Shown here one piece after another: positions 777 through 53,517 of a DNA stretch of 64,000 nucleotides (positions are counted from its first letter, which is position 1; every line of letters begins with the position of its first letter). This DNA comes from Terriglobales bacterium (GTDB lineage: Bacteria; Acidobacteriota; Terriglobia; Terriglobales; Acidobacteriaceae), in contig JBBIOA010000017.1 of NCBI GenBank assembly GCA_037443605.1, positions 20,739-84,738 on the forward strand. Reading direction: 5' to 3'. The notes below the pieces were generated by a model. The model was not told the origin of the DNA. It searched no databases and was given only the letters and a program-made list of their open reading frames with translations. A program made the position numbers and the translations under genes.

Positions 777-2210
777 ATGTCGACAAGATCCTCAACAACT
801 CCGCTCATCGCCATCGTCGGACGGCCGAACGTGGGCAAGTCCACTCTGTTTAACCGCATTGTGGGATCGCGGAGGGCCATTGTGGGCGACGAGCCCGGCA
901 TCACGCGCGATCGACTGTATGGCGAGGCGGAGTGGCGCGGGCGGAGGTTTCGGATTGTCGATACGGGCGGAATTCTGCCTGAGGACAAGGACCTGATTCC
1001 GTCGGAGATTTTTCGCCAGGCGCGGGTGGCGCTCGACGAAGCGGCAGCGATTGTGATGGTGGTGGACGGGCGCACGGAACTCGCAGGGCCAGATATGGAA
1101 CTGGTGCGGTTGCTGCGCAAGGCCAACCGGCCATTGTTTCTCGCCGTGAACAAGGCGGATAGCGAAAAACAGATCGGCATGGTCGATGACTTTCATCGGC
1201 TGGGTGTGAAGCAGATGTATGCAATTTCCGCGGAGCACGGGCGCGGGGTGGATGATCTGCTGGACGCGGTGATTGCCGAGTTTCCGCAGGAAAGCCTCAC
1301 CACCGGGGACACAGAGGTCACAGAGGAAACCGGCGCAGAGCCAACGACCGACGGCCAACAACCAACGACTGAGGTAAAGGTGGCCATCATCGGGCATCCG
1401 AACGTGGGGAAATCCACGCTGCTGAATTGCCTGACGGGATCGGATCGGGCGATCGTTTCTCCGATTCCGGGCACGACACGAGACGCAGTGGATGAGGTTG
1501 TGGAACGCAATGGGCGAACCTTTCGATTCATCGATACGGCCGGCATCCGCCGCAAGGGCAAGACGCATCTGATGGCCGAGAAGCTATCGGTGGTGATGGC
1601 GCGCAAGCATCTGGAAGATGCCGACGTTGCGCTGCTAGTGATCGACGCGACCGAGGGCGTCAGCCAGCTCGATGCATCGATTGCAGGTTATGCGCATGAG
1701 AGCGGGCGTTCGGTGATCATCGTCGTGAACAAGTGGGATTTGGTGATCAGCGGAAAGCCCAAAACCGGCAGGCCGACCAAAGCGGATCGCATGCGCGAAT
1801 CGAAACGTCCGGGCGACCGCAGCGCGTACGAAGAGCGCCTGCGGTACGAATTGAAGTTCCTGAGCTACGCTCCGGTGGTCTTCATCTCGGCGCAGAACGG
1901 CAAGGGCACAGAGCAAATTCTTCCTTTACTCGAGCAAGTGGCCGACGAACGGCGCAAGCGCATCCCCACGTCGGAGATGAATCGGTTTATTGAGAAAGTG
2001 GATTTCGAGCGCGCTTCGGTGCCCATGCGGCAGCGGGTGAAGATTCTCTACATGACGCAGGCATCAGTGGCCCCGCCCACATTCGTGCTGTTCACCAACC
2101 GGGCAGTGAAGCTGCATTTTTCGTATCAGAGATTTCTGGAAAACCGGATTCGCGACGCGTTTGGGTTTGTGGGGACGCCGATTTGGATTAAGAACAGAGC
2201 GAGGGAGTAG
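777..2210 (+). CDS. der: Ribosome-associated GTPase Der/EngA
   Basis: Two tandem GTPase domains with G1 loops GRPNVGKSTLFN and GHPNVGKSTLLN, G3 DTGG/DTAG and G4 NKAD/NKWD, an acidic linker and a KH-like C-terminus. Confidence 0.95.
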   Translation: MSTRSSTTPLIAIVGRPNVGKSTLFNRIVGSRRAIVGDEPGITRDRLYGEAEWRGRRFRIVDTGGILPEDKDLIPSEIFRQARVALDEAAAIVMVVDGRTELAGPDMELVRLLRKANRPLFLAVNKADSEKQIGMVDDFHRLGVKQMYAISAEHGRGVDDLLDAVIAEFPQESLTTGDTEVTEETGAEPTTDGQQPTTEVKVAIIGHPNVGKSTLLNCLTGSDRAIVSPIPGTTRDAVDEVVERNGRTFRFIDTAGIRRKGKTHLMAEKLSVVMARKHLEDADVALLVIDATEGVSQLDASIAGYAHESGRSVIIVVNKWDLVISGKPKTGRPTKADRMRESKRPGDRSAYEERLRYELKFLSYAPVVFISAQNGKGTEQILPLLEQVADERRKRIPTSEMNRFIEKVDFERASVPMRQRVKILYMTQASVAPPTFVLFTNRAVKLHFSYQRFLENRIRDAFGFVGTPIWIKNRARE

Positions 2211-9535: not shown

Positions 9536-10063
9536 ATGGCACGTGTCAGTTTGATTGAGATGGATTCGGCTAGCGCGGAAGTGAAAGAAATCTACGAAAA
9601 AACGTTGCGCGGCAAACCGGGCAATGCGCAAAAGGTGCTGGCGCATCGTCCGGAAATGCTAAAGGGCTTTCTTGCCTTCTACGGCACGGTGGGACGGTCT
9701 CTGGATCGCAAGCTCTATGAGCTGATTTACCTGCGCGTCTCGCTGATCAACGGCTGCTTCTACTGTTCGCAGCATCATGTGGCGTCCTCGAAGCGGGCCG
9801 GGCTGACTGCCGAAGATTGGGCGGCGCTGAAGGCTGGCGACTATTCCCGCTACAGCGACAAGGAGAAAGCGGCGCTGGCCTATGTGGAAAAGCTGACGCG
9901 TACGCCCCATGACGCGAGCGACGCGGATTTTGTTTCGCTCAAAGCGCATTTTTCCGAGCCAGAAATCGTTGATCTTCATTTGCTGACGGGACTGGCGAAC
10001 CTAACCAATCGGTTTACCGATCCACTGGGGTTGGAACTGGAATTTCCCGAAGAAAAAATCTAA
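9536..10063 (+). CDS. Carboxymuconolactone decarboxylase/AhpD-family peroxidase-like protein
   Basis: 175 aa with the AhpD-core CxxC-H motif (INGCFYCSQHH) and family-typical C-terminal helices. Confidence 0.75.
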   Translation: MARVSLIEMDSASAEVKEIYEKTLRGKPGNAQKVLAHRPEMLKGFLAFYGTVGRSLDRKLYELIYLRVSLINGCFYCSQHHVASSKRAGLTAEDWAALKAGDYSRYSDKEKAALAYVEKLTRTPHDASDADFVSLKAHFSEPEIVDLHLLTGLANLTNRFTDPLGLELEFPEEKI

Positions 10064-11961
10064 AGGATTTCCCGGGCGTCGCCGACGCGGCGGGTCACGC
10101 GCTCGCGGTCCAGATATTCGAGCAGTGGGATCGCGTATTTGCGGCTGACGCCGGTCATCTCCTTGAATTGCGCGACATCGATTTTCGGGCTTCTTGTTTT
10201 CTGCACGGCCAGCTGCTTGCGCAGAGACTCTAGCGCAGTGCGGTGAAACACGAGCTCGTCGGAAATCTTGACGATCGCGCGTTCGCGCAGCAGCAGGGTG
10301 ACGATCTTCTGGGCGCGCACCTTGTCGACTTTCAGTCCGGCAATGACTTCATGCAGCGCGGGGACTTTCAGTCCGGCGACGGCAAACGCTTCCTCGATCT
10401 TTTTTTTCGATTCGGCCTCTTCGTCCTTCATGACGACGCCGCGGCCCGAGAGACGGACGAGATCGCCGGTGACTTCGATTTTCTTCTCGGTGACGAGCGC
10501 CCGCAGGATGGCCTCGAATACCGCAACGTTGCTGGCGCCGGAGTGGACCTGCAGGTCGGCCTTACTCATCCCAGGCGCGAGCGGATTCTCCCTATGGAAG
10601 CGCTCCAGGATTGGCACGAATTGCCGCGTCAATGCTTCCCATGCTTCGGCAACCAGGAAGACCTCACCGATCCGCACAATTTGGCGCGCCTTGGTCAATT
10701 CCGCCAACTGACTTTCAACCACTTGCCTGAGCCATCCAGTCGCCGCAACGAGATCGGCGAGAGGCGCGCCGTCATGGTGGCAGCGCCCGATCCGATGCCG
10801 GAGAATCGCTGGCCTGTCTTCACTCGCCAGAATCTCCAGCATGTTTTTTTCGGGGCGAGTGCGCGAGATGGGAGCTGCGTCTACGACGACACCGCCACCG
10901 ATCGTCACGACCGGCGAAAACTGGCGGATGATGAAGCGATCCCCGGGAAGGAGGGGCGCCGGTGCGGGAAGCGTTATGCGCGCGAAACCCGCTTCTCCCG
11001 GCCGCAATTGGGACGGTCCGTATAGAGTCATCGCCGCGACTGTCTCCATGGTGTGGCAGTGGAAATGGACTCGCGTGCGCGACTTCAAGGAATGCGGCGC
11101 GGAGGGCAACAGCGTGACGCGCACGTCGCAACGGCGAGTGATTCGAACGGTGTCGAGGGGCGCGAGCATCATGCCGCGCGCCAGCTCTTCTGTGCTCACC
11201 CCCGCCAGGTTCAACGCGGTGCGCTGTCCTGCGATGGCATGGTCGGCGGCGTGTCCGTGGACTTGGATGCCGCGTACCCGAACGCGCTGGCCGCTGGGGA
11301 ATACTTCCAGTTCATCCTCGCGGCGAATTGTGCCGGCGATCAGCGTCCCGGTCACAACCGTGCCGAAGCCCTTCATGGTAAACACGCGGTCAATCGGCAG
11401 GCGAGCGAGCGACTGCGAGTCGCGCGGGCGCAGTTCGGCGGCGGCAGCGATGATGGCCTGTTTGAGTTCGTCGAGTCCTGCGCCCGTCAGCGAACTGACC
11501 GCTACGATGGGTGAGCGCGGAGGCTCGAGGAACGTTCCACGCAGAAAGTCTTCCACCTCGAGGCGAACGACGTCGAGGGTCTCGGCGTCGACGGCGTCGG
11601 ACTTGGTGAGCACGGTGATGCCGCGCTGCACGCCCAGCAGTTGCAGGATGTCGAAGTGCTCACGGGTCTGCGGCTTGATGGACTCGTCGGCGGCGATGAC
11701 CAGCAGGACAAGATCCATGCCGCCCACGCCCGCCAGCATGTTCCGCACGAAGCGCTCGTGTCCAGGGACGTCGACGAAGCCGATACGCAGGGTCTCGCCG
11801 GAAGGCGTCGGCAGGCTCATGTGCGCGAAACCGAGATCAATGGTGATGCCGCGGCGTTTTTCTTCCTCGAGGCGGTCGGCGTCGATGCCGGTCAAAGCCT
11901 TGACCAGCGCGGTTTTCCCGTGATCGATATGGCCGGCGGTGCCGAGGATGAGGGACTTCAT
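10060..11961 (-). CDS. selB: Selenocysteine-specific translation elongation factor SelB
   Basis: Start taken at the internal ATG ([25 protein letters not shown]). EF-Tu-like G domain ([12 protein letters not shown]), beta-barrel domains, and C-terminal winged-helix SECIS-binding tail ([22 protein letters not shown]). The upstream 98 codons of the track ORF look non-coding. Confidence 0.9.
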
Positions 11962-12044
11962 CTGAAGGAATCGTAGCACGCGAGTTTCGAGGCGAGTTGC
12001 GGGGCATTGCGGCAGTCCCGGCGGTGGTCGCTTCGCTGTGGGGT

Positions 12045-12058
12045 GGACGAATGCGTCC
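12045..12058. repeat. Small palindromic hairpin GGACGAATGCGTCC (family F)
   Basis: A perfect 5-bp stem with a 4-nt loop in the selB/purL divergent spacer. The same core recurs at 28181-28194. Confidence 0.45.
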
Positions 12059-12127
12059 GCCGCTGCATTCTGGAGGATGGATTTGTTCCCCTGAAGATGC
12101 GCGGAAATGCGAAAATAGAAGCTCCCC

Positions 12128-14515
12128 ATGGCAACTTCCCTGACTTCCGCATTTTCTCCGGAAACCATCCGGCAGCATGGCTTGACCATCGACGAATACG
12201 AGAAGATCAAGCAACTGCTGGGCGGGCGCGAGCCCACCATCACTGAACTCGGCATTTTCAGTGTGATGTGGAGCGAGCACTGCTCCTACAAATCGTCGCG
12301 CGTCCACTTGAAGCGGCTACCTACGCGCAGCAAGCGGGTTCTGCAGGGCCCGGGAGAAAACGCCGGCATTATCGACATCGGCGATGGATGGGCGTGCGCC
12401 TTCAAGATCGAGTCGCACAATCACCCCAGCTTCATCGAGCCGTTTCAAGGCGCCACCACCGGCGTGGGCGGCATTCTGCGCGATATTTTCACCATGGGCG
12501 CGCGGCCGGTCGCGGTGATGGATTCTCTGCGTTTCGGGCCGATTACCGATCATGTTGGGACAGGCGCCTCGGCTGTCTTGCCAGCCGAGCTTCGCTCGGC
12601 CGGACAGCCGGGGGCGGCTGTCCCCACACAAGCAATTCCTGGCAGAACCGAGATTCACAAGAACCACTCGATCATGGAAGGCGTGGTCAGTGGCGTCGCC
12701 TCGTATGGAAATTGCTTCGGCGTGCCCAACCTCGGCGGCGAGACGAAGTTCGAGCCCTGTTATTCGGGCAACCCGCTGGTCAACGCGTTTGCGCTGGGAC
12801 TGGTGAAGAAGAACGAAATCTTCTACGCGAAGGCCGCGGGCGAAGGAAATCCGGTCATCTACGTGGGCGCTAAGACCGGGCGCGACGGCATTCATGGCGC
12901 CACCATGGCCAGCGAGGAGTTCAGCGAAGCTTCGGAAGCAAAGCGGCCCAATGTGCAGGTGGGCGATCCCTTCCTGGAAAAGCTGCTGCTGGAAGCTTGC
13001 CTCGAGGCCATGCAAACCGGCGCGATCGTGGGTATTCAGGACATGGGCGCGGCGGGGCTGACCTGCTCGACTTGCGAGATGGGAGCGCGCGGCAGCGTGG
13101 GCATCGAGATCGAACTGGATCGCGTGCCGCAGCGCGAGACGGGCATGACTCCCTACGAGATCATGCTCAGCGAGTCGCAGGAGCGCATGCTGCTGGTGGC
13201 GCAGAAGGGCCGTGAGCAGGAAGTGTTCCGCGTGTTCGAGAAATGGGGACTGGACGCCGTTGAAGTCGGCAAGGTAACGCCGGACAATCAACTGCGCGTG
13301 CTGGAGCACGGCAAGATCGTGGCGGAGATTCCGAATCCCGCGCTCACCGATGAAGCGCCGCTGTACAAGCGTCCGCTGGCGCGATGGGAACCGCCGGTAG
13401 CGCGCGAAATGCCAGATCACGTCAAAGTCGGAGCTACGCAGAACTTTGCCGCTCCGCTGAAGCAACTTCTCTCCAGCTCGAACGTCTGCAGCAAGCGCTG
13501 GGTGTGGCAGCAATACGACCACATGGTGCAGACCAACACGGTGGAAGCGCCGGGAGCGGGCGATGCCGGCGTGATTCGCGTCAAGGGCTCGCAGCGTGGG
13601 CTGGCGATGGCGCTCGATGGCAATGGACGGTGGTGCTATCTGGATCCGAAACTGGGCGCGGAACATGCCGTGGCTGAGGCCGCGCGCAAGGTTGCTTGCT
13701 CCGGCGCGACTCCGGTGGGCGCGACGAACTGCTTGAATTTCGGTAATCCCGAAAAGCCGCACATCATGTGGCAGTTCTCGCAGACGATTGACGGCATCAC
13801 CAAAGCTTGCGAGGAACTCGAGATTCCCATCACCGGCGGCAACGTCAGTTTCTACAACGAGACACTCGGCGAAGGAATCTATCCGACTCCAGTGCTAGGC
13901 GTGGTCGGAATCCTCGACGACGTGCACAAATCCGTGCACATGCATTTCGCCGCGGCCGGACGCACGATTGTGCTATTGCGCGGCGGGGAAAGCGGCGATA
14001 TCACCGATGCCGAGAGCGAGTTCGGCTCGTCTGACTACGCCAAGGAAATTCTTGGGACCTTCTGGGGATATCCTCCGGAACTGGATCTGGAAAGAGAGGC
14101 GGCGCTGCAAAAGTGCGTGATTGGCCTGATCACGGACAGACTGGTGGAGTCGGCCCACGATTGTTCCGAGGGCGGCCTGGCGGTGGCGCTAGCCGAGAAG
14201 GCTCTACCGAAAGGCGTGGGAGCACGGGTGAACCTGGCTTCCGGCGAGCTTCCCGCTGAATTCGTACTGTTCGGCGAGGACGCCAGCCGCGTGCTGGTAT
14301 CGTGCGACCCGGAGAGCCTGCCGCGAATCAAACAGGCAGCGGAGAAACATGGCATTTCTGCCGAGGTCGTTGGGGAGACGATTCCCGAGATGTTGGAAAT
14401 TTCGGTCGGTGGCAAGACTGTGGTCTCGGCTCTGGTGACGGATTTAAGCGCGGCCTATGAAGGCGCGCTGGAAGCGGCGCTGCGTACGGATCCGGAACTA
14501 GTAGCGGCAGATTGA
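12128..14515 (+). CDS. purL: Phosphoribosylformylglycinamidine synthase subunit PurL
   Basis: 795 aa. Contains [52 protein letters not shown]. It carries an extra repeat-derived segment (see the repeat at 12551-12630). Confidence 0.95.
12551..12630 (+). repeat. Family-A hairpin repeat element inserted in-frame within purL
   Basis: catgttGGGACAGgCGcctCGgCTGTCttgccaGCCGAGCttcGCTCGGCcGGACAGCCGggggCGGCTGTCCccacaca. This is the same module (GGACAGCCG-loop-CGGCTGTCC plus GTCGAGC-loop-GCTCGAC) as the intergenic copies at 48650, 48799 and 53472. Confidence 0.75.
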
Positions 14516-14612: not shown

Positions 14613-14678
14613 CGTGTGGGTTTTGAACGAGTGGTTCTCGAGTAGTGGGTGCCGGCACCTCGCAGCAAAAAGGGCTCA

Positions 14679-16100
14679 ATGCATAATTCAGACAAATTTC
14701 ATGATGAATGCGGGGTAGTGGCCATCTTCGCGCACCCGGAAGCGGAGAAACTCGCGTACCTCGGCTTGCACGCGTTGCAGCACCGAGGCCAGGAGTCGTC
14801 GGGGATTGTGACTTCCGACGGGCTCACATCGCGGGTCCACAAGGCTATGGGCTCGGTAGCGGACATTTTCACTGAAGACGTGCTGTCGCGCATCCGCGGC
14901 ACGCTGGCGATTGGGCACACTCGCTATTCGACGGCGGGGGACTCCGCTTTGCTGAATGCGCAGCCGATCCTGGTGCAGTCGAACAAAGGCTCGATCGCAG
15001 TGGCGCATAACGGCAACCTGACGAATGCGGTGCAGATCCGATCGCGGCTGGAGAGCCACGGGTCGATCTTCCAGACCAACAGCGATACGGAAGTCATTGT
15101 GCACCTGATCGCGCTCTCCAAAGAACTCACGCTGCCCGAGGCCATGGCGGATGCGCTGCGGCGAGTGGAGGGCGCATATTCGCTGGTCATGATGACCCAC
15201 GACCGGATTTTTGCGGCGCGCGATCCGCGCGGATTTCGCCCGCTGGCGATGGGGCGCATCCCCGCACTCGAGGACCACAAGCACGACACCATCGTGTTTG
15301 CCTCGGAGACCTGCGCGTTCGATCTGGTTGGCGCCGAATACGTGCGCGATGTGAAGCCGGGGGAATTGCTGGTGGTGAGCCCCGAGGGCATCAGTTCTCG
15401 TTTCTACGCGACCTCCGTACCGCAGTCCAGCTGCATTTTCGAGCACGTATATTTCTCGCGGCCCGATAGTCTGGTGTTTGGGCGTTCGGTGCAGACCAGC
15501 CGCGAGGAACTTGGCCGTCAACTGGCGCGCGAGGCCCCGGTCGAAGCCGACTTGGTCGTGCCGGTTCCGGATTCCGGCGTGACTTCGGCGGTGGGATATG
15601 CGGCGGAGAGCGGCATCCCATTCCGCTTCGGACTCATCCGCAATCACTATGTTGGGCGCACGTTCATCGAACCGAGCCAGAGCGTACGCGACTTTGGGGT
15701 AAAGCTGAAGTTGAATCCGGTGCGCTCGCTGCTCGAAGGCAAGCGCGTAGTGATGATCGACGATTCGATCGTGCGTGGCACCACCAGCCGCAAGATCGTC
15801 CGCATGATCCGCAATGCGGGCGCGCGCGAGGTGCACATGCGCATTTCCTGTCCGCCGACGATCTCGCCGTGTTACTACGGCGTGGACACGCCGTCAAAGA
15901 AGCAGCTCATCGCGGCCAACAAGTCGGTCGACGAAATCCGCGAGTATATTGGCGCGGACTCTCTGGCGTATCTCTCCCTGGAGGGATTGAAAAAAGCTTG
16001 CGGCGAAGGTGGGAACCTTTCGTATTGCTCCGCGTGTTATACGGGGAAATATCCGACAGACATCATCGACGTTGAGGAAATTCAGGCGGCGAGCCGGTAA
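14679..16100 (+). CDS. purF: Amidophosphoribosyltransferase PurF
   Basis: Start taken at MHNSDKFHDECGVVAIF (Ntn Cys after a short propeptide). Contains the PRPP loop VVMIDDSIVRGTTS and C-terminal Cys residues for an Fe-S cluster. Confidence 0.95.
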   Translation: MHNSDKFHDECGVVAIFAHPEAEKLAYLGLHALQHRGQESSGIVTSDGLTSRVHKAMGSVADIFTEDVLSRIRGTLAIGHTRYSTAGDSALLNAQPILVQSNKGSIAVAHNGNLTNAVQIRSRLESHGSIFQTNSDTEVIVHLIALSKELTLPEAMADALRRVEGAYSLVMMTHDRIFAARDPRGFRPLAMGRIPALEDHKHDTIVFASETCAFDLVGAEYVRDVKPGELLVVSPEGISSRFYATSVPQSSCIFEHVYFSRPDSLVFGRSVQTSREELGRQLAREAPVEADLVVPVPDSGVTSAVGYAAESGIPFRFGLIRNHYVGRTFIEPSQSVRDFGVKLKLNPVRSLLEGKRVVMIDDSIVRGTTSRKIVRMIRNAGAREVHMRISCPPTISPCYYGVDTPSKKQLIAANKSVDEIREYIGADSLAYLSLEGLKKACGEGGNLSYCSACYTGKYPTDIIDVEEIQAASR

Positions 16101-20597: not shown

Positions 20598-20627
20598 CGT
20601 CGTCGGTCGTTAGTCGTCGGTCGTTGG
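20598..20627. repeat. Left 30-nt inverted-repeat arm of the four-helix-bundle cassette
   Basis: cgtcgtcggtcgttagtcgtcggtcgttgg, itself a tandem of GTCGTCGGTCGTT-like units. It abuts the prfA ATG (20597). Confidence 0.8.
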
Positions 20628-20637
20628 CCGTGCGCTT

Positions 20638-28037: not shown

Positions 28038-28180
28038 GTAACACTTTTAGATACAACGATTTGGCGGCTTTCTGGGAAACTTCGGTAACTTGAAACCGCG
28101 CAAGAGGCCAAGCCACGGAGTTGTCCTCTCGGACAGGCAGGAGTCCCTTAACTCTTTCTGTATCAGTCACGGAGCCAACC

Positions 28181-28194
28181 GGACGCATTCGTCC
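28181..28194. repeat. Small palindromic hairpin GGACGCATTCGTCC (family F)
   Basis: Reverse complement of the 12045-12058 core, located downstream of ilvN. Confidence 0.45.
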
Positions 28195-28255
28195 GGGGGT
28201 GCGGAACGCAGCGATGGCAGACGCCGGGGGCTGGGTCGCCCTCTGCACCAGGCGA

Positions 28256-33051: not shown

Positions 33052-33154
33052 GCGTGGCGGACGCACATCCGGCGTGGTCCCTTCACCAAGATACACCCGC
33101 ACGCATTCGTGCAACTGCGTAGGCATCATGGAGAGAAACAGAACATGAAATGTA

Positions 33155-33182
33155 GGGACAGCCGCCCTCGGCAGTTCGAAGC
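33155..33182 (+). repeat. Degenerate family-A repeat copy
   Basis: gggacagccgccctcggcagttcgaagc versus the canonical ggggacagccgccctcggctgtccgtcgagc. Lies in the hybD / kinase-fusion spacer. Confidence 0.4.
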
Positions 33183-40696: not shown

Positions 40697-40773
40697 TGGT
40701 GGCGGCGGCTGGACTCGAACCAGCGACCTACGGATTATGAGACCGTCGCTCTAACCACCTGAGCTACACCGCC
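40697..40773 (-). tRNA. tRNA with CAT anticodon (elongator tRNA-Met, or lysidine-type tRNA-Ile2); CCA encoded
   Basis: The reverse complement GGCGGTGTAGCTCAGGTGGTTAGAGCGACGGTCTCATAATCCGTAGGTCGCTGGTTCGAGTCCAGCCGCCGCCACCA folds as a cloverleaf (7-bp acceptor stem, GCTC/GAGC D-stem, CTCATAA loop, GCTGG/CCAGC T-stem). It is not initiator-like (1-72 are paired, and there is no GGG/CCC anticodon stem). Confidence 0.9.
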
Positions 40774-46746: not shown

Positions 46747-46760
46747 TGCCGACTCGGTTT

Positions 46761-46778
46761 CCTCTGTGTCCTCTGTGG
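46761..46778 (-). repeat. Family-E repeat core, tandem (CCTCTGTGT/CCTCTGTGG; reverse complement CACAGAGG x2)
   Basis: cctctgtgtcctctgtgg lies adjacent to the terminator. The same core occurs inside the ligase gene (23374-23399). Confidence 0.6.
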
Positions 46779-46787
46779 TGAAAGGGG

Positions 46788-48523: not shown

Positions 48524-48576
48524 TGTCCCTCTCTGGAACGACGTGGTTCAGCCAAGCGCGGCAAAACAGAAGCAAT

Positions 48577-48864
48577 AGAAGATTTTATGCGGGCAGGAGA
48601 GGGATGGCAATCGAGGATTTGCCGCAAGAGAGCTGGGGACAGCCGTGAACATGTGGGGACAGCCGCCCCCGGCTGTCCAGTCGAGCAAAGCTCGACGGCA
48701 ACTGCGGCGTACGACTACAGCGACAGAAGATTTTATGCGGGCAGGAGAGGGATGGCAATCGAGGATTAGCCGCGAGAGAGCTGGCCACCCGCCGTGAACA
48801 TGTGGGGACAGCCGCCCCCGGCTGTCCAGTCGAGCGAAGCTCGACGGCAAATGCGGCGTACGAC
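48577..48864 (+). repeat. Two tandem copies of a ~148-bp composite unit, each containing a family-A hairpin module
   Basis: The unit starts agaagattttatgcgggcaggagagggatggcaatcgaggatt... at 48577 and again at 48725. Family-A cores lie at 48650-48696 and 48799-48845. The copies differ at a handful of positions and one 1-nt indel. Confidence 0.85.
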
Positions 48865-48890
48865 TTAGAGGAATCGCCGGGCGGAACGCG

Positions 48891-53471: not shown

Positions 53472-53517
53472 CATGTGGGGACAGCCGCCCTCGGCTGTCC
53501 GTCGAGCGCAGCTCGAC
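53472..53517 (+). repeat. Family-A hairpin repeat copy
   Basis: catgtGGGGACAGCCGccctCGGCTGTCCGTCGAGCgcaGCTCGAC. Confidence 0.8.

Follow-up and report, generated by a model that had tools for sequence, protein, structure and literature searches.

The 80-nt segment that is read in-frame within purL, in the 64-kb stretch of DNA analysed here (the window), is probably a doublet of REPs that was mobilised by a RAYT, that is carried as a passenger in a permissive loop of the protein and that later served as a landing site for further repeats. A RAYT, or REP-associated tyrosine transposase, is an HUH/Y1 enzyme of the IS200/IS605 type, which recognises a single-stranded hairpin plus a 5' GT[A/G]G tag. 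REPs, in the proposed mechanism, are short, non-autonomous, hairpin-forming mobile repeats, and the present family would most likely be copied in trans by a RAYT. The doublet would have landed in, or built up in, a length-tolerant loop of the first AIRS domain of PurL, where it would be translated as a passenger peptide. It may have persisted because its length is a multiple of three, practically no stop codon occurs in any frame and the Ala/Gly/Pro/Ser/Thr-rich peptide is harmless. The resident REP would then have become a landing pad, at which REPs of the same or other families were inserted, nested, duplicated and deleted to give a hypervariable loop. The hot-spot behaviour of this loop is the interesting part of the finding; in-frame REP insertion is already known in other bacteria.

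The repeat doublet within purL

The host gene was identified from its product, which matched the PDB structures of Thermus (3VIU, E = 4.5e-194) and Thermotoga (1VK3), and from the Pfam domains FGAR-AT_linker, AIRS and AIRS_C in its homologues. The segment 12551-12630 is in-frame and stop-free and adds 26 to 27 aa to the PurL loop, and the "empty" orthologues, at 769 aa, are shorter than the query PurL by 26 aa (78 nt). An earlier note on this DNA had claimed that the segment is translated without a stop into 27 residues, and the ORF translation (PurL residues 142-168) bears this out. The same note took the segment for one full copy of a repeat module like those found between genes. The repeat identity and the similarity to the intergenic copies stand, but the element is an inverted doublet rather than one unit, consisting of a decayed forward unit, a 5-nt spacer and an intact reverse unit, and the intact unit is inverted relative to the intergenic copies (Table 1).

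Table 1 Features of the window that bear on the purL repeat
Feature	Position	Strand	Remarks
purL	12128..14515	+	small-type FGAM synthase II, 795 aa; host ORF of the REP doublet
Whole REP doublet (REPIN-like) in purL	12551..12630	.	read in-frame as H142-Q168
Forward REP unit	12551..12578	+	CATGTT tag, stem-loop GGGACAGGCG-CCT-CGGCTGTCT; decayed, second hairpin lost
Reverse REP unit	12584..12630	-	near consensus; hairpin 2 12584-12600, hairpin 1 12602-12623, GTG-tag complement 12625-12627
Rest of clade-specific loop, AIPGRTEI	12632..12655	+	just 5' of the conserved HKNHS... block
purF	14649-16100		downstream of purL
Degenerate family-A unit	33149..33177	+	83% identical to reference; hairpin 2 decayed
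Intergenic REP unit, family A	48650..48696	+	first of two in a 148-nt tandem duplication
Intergenic REP unit, family A	48799..48845	+	second in the 148-nt tandem duplication
Intergenic REP unit, family A	53472..53517	+	between thyX-like and GH3 glycosidase genes

The two stems of the forward unit (at 12558 and 12570) carry one mismatch each; in the purL of a relative (L002), the forward unit is complete and includes a 15-nt small hairpin that is absent from the window (alignment A1). The reverse unit, which could be aligned with 118 other members of the repeat family termed family A (alignment A3), reads GCCGAGC-TTC-GCTCGGC, then GGACAGCCG-GGGG-CGGCTGTCC, then CCACACA. A 111-nt region is predicted to fold into a single long hairpin, both as RNA (-57.5 kcal/mol, z = -4.7) and as DNA (-33.2 kcal/mol, z = -5.0), and an equally good fold was obtained in 0/200 shuffles. 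In the minimum-energy fold, each unit pairs with the other and the small hairpin forms the tip. A scan of 12200-13000 for terminators and promoters found none at 12551-12630, where the combination of a GC-rich hairpin and a T/U run that defines an intrinsic terminator was absent; its sole hit, at 12462-12481, is unrelated and within shuffle expectation. Rfam searches of the whole window at gathering thresholds returned only one tRNA (40700-40773).

The anchors GARPxAxxDSL and GxxxYGN are 19 aa apart in 68 of the 84 PurLs of a diverse set and 54 aa apart in the query, in agreement with the roughly 35 extra residues reported in the earlier note; an "empty" allele of the same clade has 28 aa between these anchors. 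Residues 140-178 of the query PurL interrupt its alignments with the PDB entries. A homologous segment was found neither in unrelated phyla nor in the Thermus and Thermotoga structures, and the insert is also absent from an "empty" allele of the same clade. As far as sequence comparison goes, the purL segment is lineage-specific.

The residues that flank the loop (S133-P138, H177, H180 and S181) are invariant in 36 aligned orthologues. An AlphaFold2 model of the 795-aa PurL, built from a 36-sequence alignment, had a mean pLDDT of 41 and a pTM of 0.38 and was too poor to interpret; the extreme length tolerance of the site suggests that the loop lies on the protein surface. The insert is probably translated and roughly neutral.

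Family A and its association with RAYT genes

Five family-A copies lie within the 64 kb of the window. The pattern GGACAGCCG-N3-12-CGGCTGTCC occurs there four times (12602, 48657, 48806 and 53479), and no occurrence was found in any of 100 dinucleotide-preserving shuffles. In reverse complement, 12586-12628 is identical over 43 nt to 48801-48843 at 95% and to 48652-48694 at 93% of positions, so that the proposed similarity of the purL copy to the intergenic copies is far above background. The purL reverse unit also matches 53474-53501 with 96% identity across 28 nt, and the degenerate copy at 33151-33178 with 86%. The copies at 48650, 48799 and 53472 had been described as lying between genes, and their ORF and Pfam neighbours support this, the first two being situated between a coaD-like gene and an ORF downstream of recA.

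The family-A consensus is YAYGTR-GGGACAGCCGCC(C)N-CGGCTGTCC-N-GNCGAGCGAAGCTCGNC. A GTAG/GTGG tag is present at the 5' foot of the palindrome: in alignment A3, G4 and T5 do not vary, A or G stands at position 6 and G at position 7 (consensus CATGT[G/A]GGGACAG). The 9-bp stem GGACAGCCG/CGGCTGTCC, with its loop of 3-5 nt, is invariant in the 119 aligned units, an invariance fixed by the construction of the search. Hairpin 2 (GAGC-GAA-GCTC) covaries: it is 82% paired and shows 110 double-sided changes, compared with 34 +/- 5 in shuffles; 92.5% of its cells are paired, versus 23-41% when the partners were slid.

Family A was detected in at least 120 genome stretches, nearly all from Terriglobia, Acidobacteriaceae or Sulfotelmatobacter. 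Among the matches listed, the single 47-nt unit is the commonest form and two to three units per 8 kb are frequent. Inverted pairs 60-130 nt apart occur in five loci (L010, L060, L085, L110 and L122) and upstream of every RAYT. The best DNA identity of other purL genes to the window is 78-84% (BLAST against 210 loci). A few hits outside the Acidobacteria, such as that in the Aminicenantes ribosomal protein L2 gene (L005), have neither the GTG tag nor the second hairpin and were discarded as chance stem matches. The comparison sequences are nearly all MAG or metagenome contigs, some of them from long reads, and single-base indels may therefore be assembly errors (e.g. the frameshifted P0044). 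Judged by these sequence features, family A is a classic GT[A/G]G-tagged REP that is widespread in Terriglobia genomes.

A candidate mobilising enzyme was found in the related Terriglobia. The gene at L027:747-1229 matched the NCBIfam model NF047646, "REP-associated tyrosine transposase", with 82.5 bits (cutoff 80), as well as Pfam Y1_Tnp; family-A units lie on both sides of it. In a survey of 80 metagenomic relatives of this RAYT (71-92% identity), a family-A unit was located no more than 300 nt upstream in all 74 evaluable loci and a downstream unit was present in 58/69. The layout is fixed, with a forward unit at about -170, a reverse unit at about -14, the gene, and a reverse unit at about +45. 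These flanked genes belong to related Terriglobia rather than to the window's own genome, in which we assume that a cognate RAYT exists; a HUH-motif scan of the 64-kb window found no RAYT, and Pfam found none among the genes beside the intergenic copies of the window (coaD-like, recA, thyX-like, GH3 and aminotransferase). The association of the units with the gene suggests that the RAYT mobilises family A.

Insertion into coding sequence is not confined to purL. About 12-14 of 140 sampled copies (about 10%) are inserted in-frame with genuine Pfam domains on either side, and about 90% of the sampled sites are outside validated ORFs. The host genes include metH (twice, at the same spot), mutS, class II RNR, ubiD, Mo-oxidoreductases, Lhr, a kinase and a further purL; each of the six reading frames is represented. 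The family-A unit is stop-free in five frames, and the sixth is open in 87/119 units, its stop arising mainly from ATG-TAG in GTAG-tagged variants. Four candidates (L008, L097, L098 and L118) were not counted as intragenic, since the repeat precedes the first Pfam domain and perhaps also the true start codon.

Turnover in the purL loop and competing explanations

The states of the loop were classified by peptide motifs in 121 close orthologues (120 hits plus the query), and the DNA was checked for 11 purL loci. The census comprised 25 reverse-only, 22 forward-only and 19 doublet loops, 15 loops with family B, 11 with family C and 11 that were empty or nearly so, the rest being mixed or other. 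At the DNA level, the loop of L125 holds four tandem 39-nt units of family B, that of L126 holds family C as an inverted doublet, and that of L130 holds a 24-nt piece of family E nested in a family-A stem. Families B, C-like and E also occur scattered through loci other than purL, and shuffled sequences gave 0 hits. Loop state differs between PurLs that share 97.0-97.5% identity in the rest of the protein, and the open frame through the insert is kept in every purL allele examined. Between species, the reverse units in purL are 81-92% identical (5/6 loci), compared with about 60% at the third-codon positions of the flanks. On these sequences, the loop is a hot spot for dispersed repeats in Candidatus Sulfotelmatobacter-like Terriglobia, and existing REPs may attract new ones.

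Comparison of a filled allele (L127) with an empty one (L128) that is 97% identical yielded no callable target-site duplication or exact boundary, because the loop sequence of the empty allele has been replaced and is unlike the filled flanks.

In every filled allele the insert lies at one and the same site, with GPI(T) on one side and E[IL]H[KR]NHS on the other, several of these alleles have the right-hand junction CCCCACACAAGCA in common, and short loops such as those of P0105 (TTHATQTIPTQAE) and P0095 resemble remnants. These features would fit one ancient insertion in the ancestor of the clade, with everything else being decay or deletion in the absence of ongoing REP activity or a hot spot. 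We regard this history as unlikely, since at least three other dispersed families occupy the site, tandem (L125) and nested (L130) additions have occurred, whole units distinguish PurLs that otherwise share 97% identity, and the reverse unit of the window is at the consensus while its forward unit has decayed. The excess of unit identity over third-codon identity is also unlike old neutral decay and points instead to recent insertion, gene conversion or constraint. Greater conservation than at neutral sites would be shared by an insert that has been co-opted, with selection on an mRNA or DNA hairpin (pausing, mRNA stability, or a replication or gyrase site) or on the peptide (e.g. a PurS/PurQ contact), and stem changes within the gene are indeed often compensatory (L002 GAACAGCCG/CGGCTGTTC; GCCGAGC/GCTCGGC in the window versus GCGGAGC/GCTCCGC in L002). 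However, the compensatory variants are also common as genomic subfamilies, and independent insertion or gene conversion therefore explains the stems equally well. Moreover, close relatives with otherwise near-identical enzymes have loops that are empty, single, double or quadruple, or that contain unrelated families or another frame, and the element, which has no terminator-like tail and no Rfam family, is found in numerous proteins that are unrelated to one another and is read there in each of the six frames. Co-option is thus quite improbable.

Repeats can produce misassemblies, and a chimeric MAG join induced by the repeat, or else a native loop that resembles the repeat by chance, would make the insert spurious. 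The frame is intact, however, both flanks are invariant PurL motifs, and repeat units occupy the same codon position in dozens of assemblies made independently of one another (ENA, JGI and NCBI); chance is excluded by the 93-95% identity over 43 nt and the 0/100 shuffles, which leaves this explanation with a negligible probability. Hardly more than a token chance can be given to a MITE derived from a DDE-type insertion sequence, with terminal inverted repeats and a target-site duplication, in place of REP/RAYT. The inverted ends and the MITE-like size (80 nt) of the doublet would suit such an element, but single units prevail in the family, each unit is itself a tagged palindrome, and the gene that such units flank in a constant arrangement encodes a Y1/HUH RAYT; the purL junctions show no target-site duplication, the loop of the empty allele being too diverged for a clean call. 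A RAYT-mobilised REP doublet in a permissive loop is therefore the explanation that we favour.

Likeness to known repeat systems and significance

The purL repeat shares many features with the GTAG-tagged REPs and REPINs (Nunvar 2010; Bertels & Rainey 2011, PMC3116915; PMC3733652): a palindrome of 20-40 nt after a GT[A/G]G tag, dispersed copies that in family A lie mostly outside validated ORFs among the 140 sites sampled, inverted doublets as a frequent form, a RAYT with units of its own family on either side (REPtron), and a minority of copies inside ORFs, often as dimers, that encode about 20-30 aa. It differs from them in that family A is another sequence family in another phylum (Acidobacteriota, Terriglobia) and that its unit has a second, covarying mini-hairpin (GAGC-GAA-GCTC). 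In-frame intragenic REPs have already been catalogued in other phyla, and in Xanthomonas recB distinct REPs occupy nearly the same site (Di Nocera et al. 2013, PMC3733652); compared with this single example, the purL site has undergone far more extensive multi-family turnover. For Koribacter, the literature that we found reports only TIR-flanked tyrosine transposases.

The earlier note likened the insert to the Rickettsia palindromic elements (RPEs). As a description of behaviour this is apt, for RPEs are likewise palindromic mobile repeats placed in-frame in conserved genes, with the extra peptide in a tolerant region and the host protein presumably functional (Ogata et al. 2000; cited in PMC3733652), but GT[A/G]G-tagged REP/REPIN with a RAYT is the more exact label. 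The likeness is one of behaviour; the lineage is unrelated, the length differs from that of the long RPE-1 elements, and the element is carried by a free-living soil acidobacterium whose genome is large, with a cognate RAYT identified in related Terriglobia. Intragenic CGTC-tagged REPs of R. conorii match RPE-4 and RPE-6 (Di Nocera et al., PMC3733652). The BIMEs and REP clusters of Enterobacteria and Pseudomonas are also mosaics of mixed REP subtypes in alternating orientation at one locus, but they are extragenic, whereas the purL mosaic is inside an ORF and constrained to frame. GC-rich, hairpin-forming inserts in coding sequence are further known from the "byp" elements of yeast mitochondria and the hop in T4 gene 60. 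Those need not keep the frame and may hold stops; as all of the examined purL alleles are open, read-through translation is the simpler reading than bypass.

Because intragenic REPs and RPEs are established, the concept itself is unchanged. What the purL loop offers is a natural saturation experiment, in which a single position, seven residues after the invariant MDSLRFG motif, tolerates lengths from 10 to 68 residues, at least four repeat families, and varied frames and copy numbers. For protein engineering, the loop marks a permissive insertion point in PurM-superfamily enzymes. For strain typing, its state separates PurLs that are 97% identical, and in annotation, many unusual low-complexity regions and false ORFs of Terriglobia MAGs are accounted for by repeat-derived peptides such as HGAPDALVRG.

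A broader proposal, which we put forward only tentatively and rather doubt, is that the landing pad is self-perpetuating and that REP/RAYT is a general generator of in-frame hypervariable linkers in Terriglobia housekeeping proteins. If so, a REP hairpin resident in coding sequence would draw in RAYT-dependent insertions, nestings and excisions of several REP families, and linker peptides would have been generated in purL, metH, mutS, RNR, der and others. The "empty" 28-aa loop, which exceeds the canonical 19 aa by 9, would on this view be the footprint of an old excision: L128 reads CAT..GGA followed by TGTC..C.CA, and the REP ends of L127 are CATGTAGGGA...TGTCCCACA. REP/RAYT systems have been studied mainly in Proteobacteria. 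The present findings indicate that they are abundant and apparently active in soil Acidobacteriota, where about one copy in ten survives in conserved genes as coding sequence.

A repeat doublet within the PurL reading frame

The product of purL in the window is homologous to the PurLs of Thermus thermophilus (PDB 3VIU; E = 4.5e-194) and Thermotoga maritima (1VK3; E = 2.7e-109), and its residues H142-Q168 are the in-frame reading of nucleotides 12551-12630. Alignment against PurL orthologues, the check proposed in the earlier note, delimited a break at this segment: the HMMER alignments to both solved small PurLs were interrupted at query residues ~140-178 and resumed 0-4 target residues on, and nearly all of the 150 diverse PurLs retrieved by searching 1.8 billion cluster representatives aligned in two stretches, with the break at the same site. 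Loop length was taken as the number of residues separating two anchors, GARPxAxxDSL and GxxxYGN, and could be measured in 84 representatives. The loop is 54 aa in the query and 28 aa in the shortest alleles of its clade, compared with 19 aa in 68 of the 84, confirming the suspected excess of ~35 residues. No segment of the same length was seen in PurLs of unrelated phyla, as the loop spans 14-31 aa outside Acidobacteria. The closest homologues (84-87% identical to the query, the named ones being Candidatus Sulfotelmatobacter; Acidobacteriota, Terriglobia) are 769-852 aa long and vary much in length between SLRFGPI and E[IL]H[KR]NHS, with invariant residues flanking the variable loop. The query exceeds the 769-aa form (GPIT-ASKDVSQK-ELHKNHS) by 26 aa (78 nt). 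The purL DNA alignment revealed four states: an empty site (L001), one reverse unit (L003), two complete head-to-head units (L002), and the doublet of the window, whose forward unit is missing 15 nt. Judged from these alignments, the purL segment is an insertion and not an ancestral part of PurL. Two acidobacterial representatives that are 69-70% identical to the query (P0122 and P0126) have 46-aa loops of unrelated sequences (e.g. ...ELGAPHLASEMWDQTPPAPDP...), suggesting that the permissiveness of the site, and possibly its invasion by repeats, extends past the Sulfotelmatobacter clade.

Four copies of the core hairpin, GGACAGCCG-loop-CGGCTGTCC, are present in the window, and none in 100 dinucleotide-preserving shuffles. 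Nucleotides 12586-12628 match the reverse complements of 48801-48843 (95% over 43 nt) and 48652-48694 (93% over 43 nt), as well as 53474-53501 (96% over 28 nt). These identities, together with the shuffle controls, indicate that the proposed similarity between the purL insert and the intergenic copies is real, and the three good intergenic copies (48650, 48799 and 53472) are indeed all located between annotated genes. What had been described as one full copy in purL is a real, in-frame repeat, now refined to an inverted doublet in which only the reverse unit is intact. Both units fold jointly into a single long hairpin (RNA, -57.5 kcal/mol, z = -4.7; DNA, -33.2 kcal/mol, z = -5.0). Since no T-run was found after this hairpin and no Rfam family matched it, a terminator or a known RNA role is not supported.

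Features of the window and host genes of family-A units in related loci (L numbers)
Feature	Position	Strand	Remark
purL, small-type PurL (FGAM synthase II), 795 aa	12128-14515	+	ORF and PDB homology
purL forward REP unit	12551-12578		Decayed; small second hairpin lost
purL reverse REP unit	12584-12630		Intact; near family consensus
selB-like translation factor gene	10060-12255	-	Opposite strand, just upstream of purL; neighbourhood kept in relatives
Single tRNA of the window	40700-40773	-	
Methionine synthase (MetH) activation domain	L065:4580-4632, L108:6247-6299		Reverse unit
MutS domain II	L116		
MutS-domain-V protein	L007		
Class II ribonucleotide reductase	L017		
UbiD	L009		
Two molybdopterin oxidoreductases	L045, L073		
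Lhr helicase	L026		
Acyltransferase	L091		
Cu-oxidase_4 protein	L092		
Ser/Thr kinase and OmpR-TPR regulator	L121, L056		
Second purL	L111		

Family A and its probable transposase

A core-hairpin scan of one genome per species returned at least 120 stretches; among the matches listed, almost all were from MAGs of Terriglobia, Acidobacteriaceae or Sulfotelmatobacter. The oriented copies agree closely on the consensus YAYGT[G/A]-GGGACAGCCGCC(C)N-CGGCTGTCC-N-GNCGAGCGAAGCTCGNC, with a 5' GT[A/G]G foot, a palindrome and then a second mini-hairpin. GTAG-tagged REPs are organised in this way (Di Nocera et al. 2013, PMC3733652). Hairpin 2 shows compensatory variants (GTCGAGC/GCTCGAC, GCCGAGC/GCTCGGC, GGCGGAGC/GCTCCGC and GCCGGGC/GCCCGGC), with 110 double-sided changes versus 34 +/- 5 in shuffles, and 92.5% of cells paired versus 23-41% with the partners slid.

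A motif scan of the related loci for a REP-associated tyrosine transposase (RAYT) identified a 161-aa ORF (L027:747-1229) that matches Pfam Y1_Tnp as well as NCBIfam NF047646, 'REP-associated tyrosine transposase' (82.5 bits; cutoff 80). Family-A units lie on both sides of this ORF, 9 nt before the start and ~20 nt after the stop. This protein, used as a query against metagenome contigs, retrieved 80 loci at 71-92% identity. An upstream unit was present within 300 nt of the RAYT in all 74 evaluable loci and a downstream unit in 58 of 69, in a fixed layout: forward unit at ~-170, reverse unit at ~-14, the gene, and a reverse unit at ~+45. Because the units bracket the RAYT in this manner, a clade of Terriglobia RAYTs has family A as its cognate REP, which makes the purL element a REPIN-like family-A doublet.

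Two more RAYT genes (L017:2246-2755, minus strand, and L110:3652-4185, plus strand; NF047646, 113 and 83 bits) are separated by 1.6-2.4 kb from family-A units, which do not bracket them immediately, and may encode transposases that serve other REP families (B, C-like) of those genomes. Positions 48571-48865 of the window are a 148-nt tandem duplication, with copies 94-97% identical that each combine ~100 nt of unique sequence with one family-A unit. An isolated half-stem, GGGGACAGCCG, is found at 48636-48646, between a coaD-like gene and the ORF that follows recA.

Repeat turnover in the purL loop

We assigned the loop states of 121 PurL orthologues (120 hits and the query) from peptide motifs. 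A reverse unit only was present in 25, a forward unit only in 22, a doublet in 19, family B (HGAPDALVRG type) in 15 and family C (VERA(L/P) type) in 11; 11 were empty or near-empty, and the remainder were other or mixed. The non-A families were confirmed on DNA: L125 has four tandem in-frame 39-nt units (CATGG-CCCGGACG-CCCT-CGTCCGGGG), L126 an inverted doublet (GTGGAGCGGGCACTCC...GGAGTGCCCGCTCGAC), and L130 a family-A stem into which 24 nt of a fourth repeat (CTTCGACTTCGCTCAGGGCA type) are nested in-frame, right after GGA. These families are also dispersed at non-purL loci, with 0 matches in shuffled controls. As read from these sequences, the purL loop is a hot spot for repeats.

The window itself contains a single family-B-like hairpin (CCGGACGC-ATT-CGTCCGG, ~28171-28205), of the same family as the tandem units in L125. 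The 'empty' loop of L128 is 9 aa longer than the canonical PurL loop, and its DNA, in which CATCAAAGGA abuts TGTCTCTCAGAAA, resembles the outer REP-doublet ends of L127 (CATGTAGGGA...TGTCCCACAAGCA); it might be an old excision footprint, not a virgin site. GGA likewise directly precedes the nested piece in L130.

Turnover of the loop is fast, as PurLs nearly identical outside it differ in state: P0006 (doublet) and P0051 (empty) at 97.0% identity, P0003 and P0105 at 97.5%, and P0113 and P0118 at 97.2%. Between species, the reverse units resident in purL share 81-92% identity in five of six loci, versus ~60% for the third-codon positions of their 390-nt flanks. Such a contrast is not expected for an old, neutrally decaying insert, and points to insertion that was recent or recurrent, to gene conversion from copies elsewhere in the genome, or to palindrome constraint. 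In P0044 (L124:1501-3897), ~30 codons of the insert are read in the +1 frame (DSRGRLSPH...), whereas P0049, 98.7% identical to it elsewhere (P0029 was also compared), reads the insert in the other frame. This difference could be a tolerated compensated frameshift pair or two indel errors in a long-read assembly.

Other host genes and a probable route of spread

Sites were called genic or intergenic by an ORF and codon-bias heuristic, checked with Pfam. About 12-14 of 140 sampled family-A sites lie inside long ORFs, between genuine Pfam domains and with a codon bias of the coding type to either side. The two MetH units, from different species, occupy one shared position (...SAGQP(G/M)AAVPTQ..LRFTFPRQ), possibly a second hot spot or a shared ancestral insert. 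All six reading frames are used by the in-ORF units (e.g. HVGTAA.., RTAEGGCPH); the unit is stop-free in five, and 87 of 119 units have no stop in the sixth either, where stops come mainly from the ATG-TAG of GTAG-tagged variants. The intragenic share of ~10% is far below the coding density that we assume for such genomes, and fits purifying selection leaving only harmless in-frame copies.

In the window, the interdomain GTPase linker of Der (der/engA ORF 777-2210, plus strand; linker LTTGDTEVTEETGAEPTTDGQQPTTE, 1296-1370) has reverse-complement matches to two other intergenic repeats: 1297-1325 with 46753-46781 (29 nt, 83%, near chance level) and 1333-1369 with 20599-20635 (37 nt, 84%, heptamer-like GTCGTYG repeats). 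The linker of Der may derive from repeats kept in frame, which would make der a second housekeeping gene of this kind in the window.

HUH transposases of the IS200/IS605 type and E. coli TnpA-REP act on single-stranded hairpins with a tetranucleotide foot (PMC6006769). In the account with the best support, RAYT-type HUH transposases would likewise spread family-A units in trans, and a unit or doublet would have inserted within the first AIRS domain of PurL, in a loop that tolerates changes in length; in the purL of L111, the Pfam match stops at profile position 66 of 112. The insert would have persisted because the frame was kept and the encoded peptide is small, flexible and Ala/Gly/Pro/Ser/Thr-rich. 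The resident REPs would then have seeded additional REP events, much as happens in the extragenic BIME clusters. We infer the RAYT mobilisation, the translation of the insert, its neutrality and the surface location of the loop.

A 2013 catalogue of intragenic in-frame REPs, frequently dimers that encode 20-30 aa, covers Opitutus terrae, Thauera, Xanthomonas and Rickettsia and includes one case of different REPs at about the same recB site (PMC3733652), and the Rickettsia RPEs have been known since 2000 (cited in PMC3733652). The principle is therefore not new. Our literature search found no description of the Terriglobia family A, its RAYT or the purL hot spot; the mentions of Acidobacteria were only Koribacter TIR-flanked tyrosine transposases and rare class 3 enzymes (PMC3733652, PMC6006769). 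In our comparison data, mostly MAG and metagenome contigs, the purL site is unusually rich, multi-family and fast in turnover, making it a useful natural experiment.
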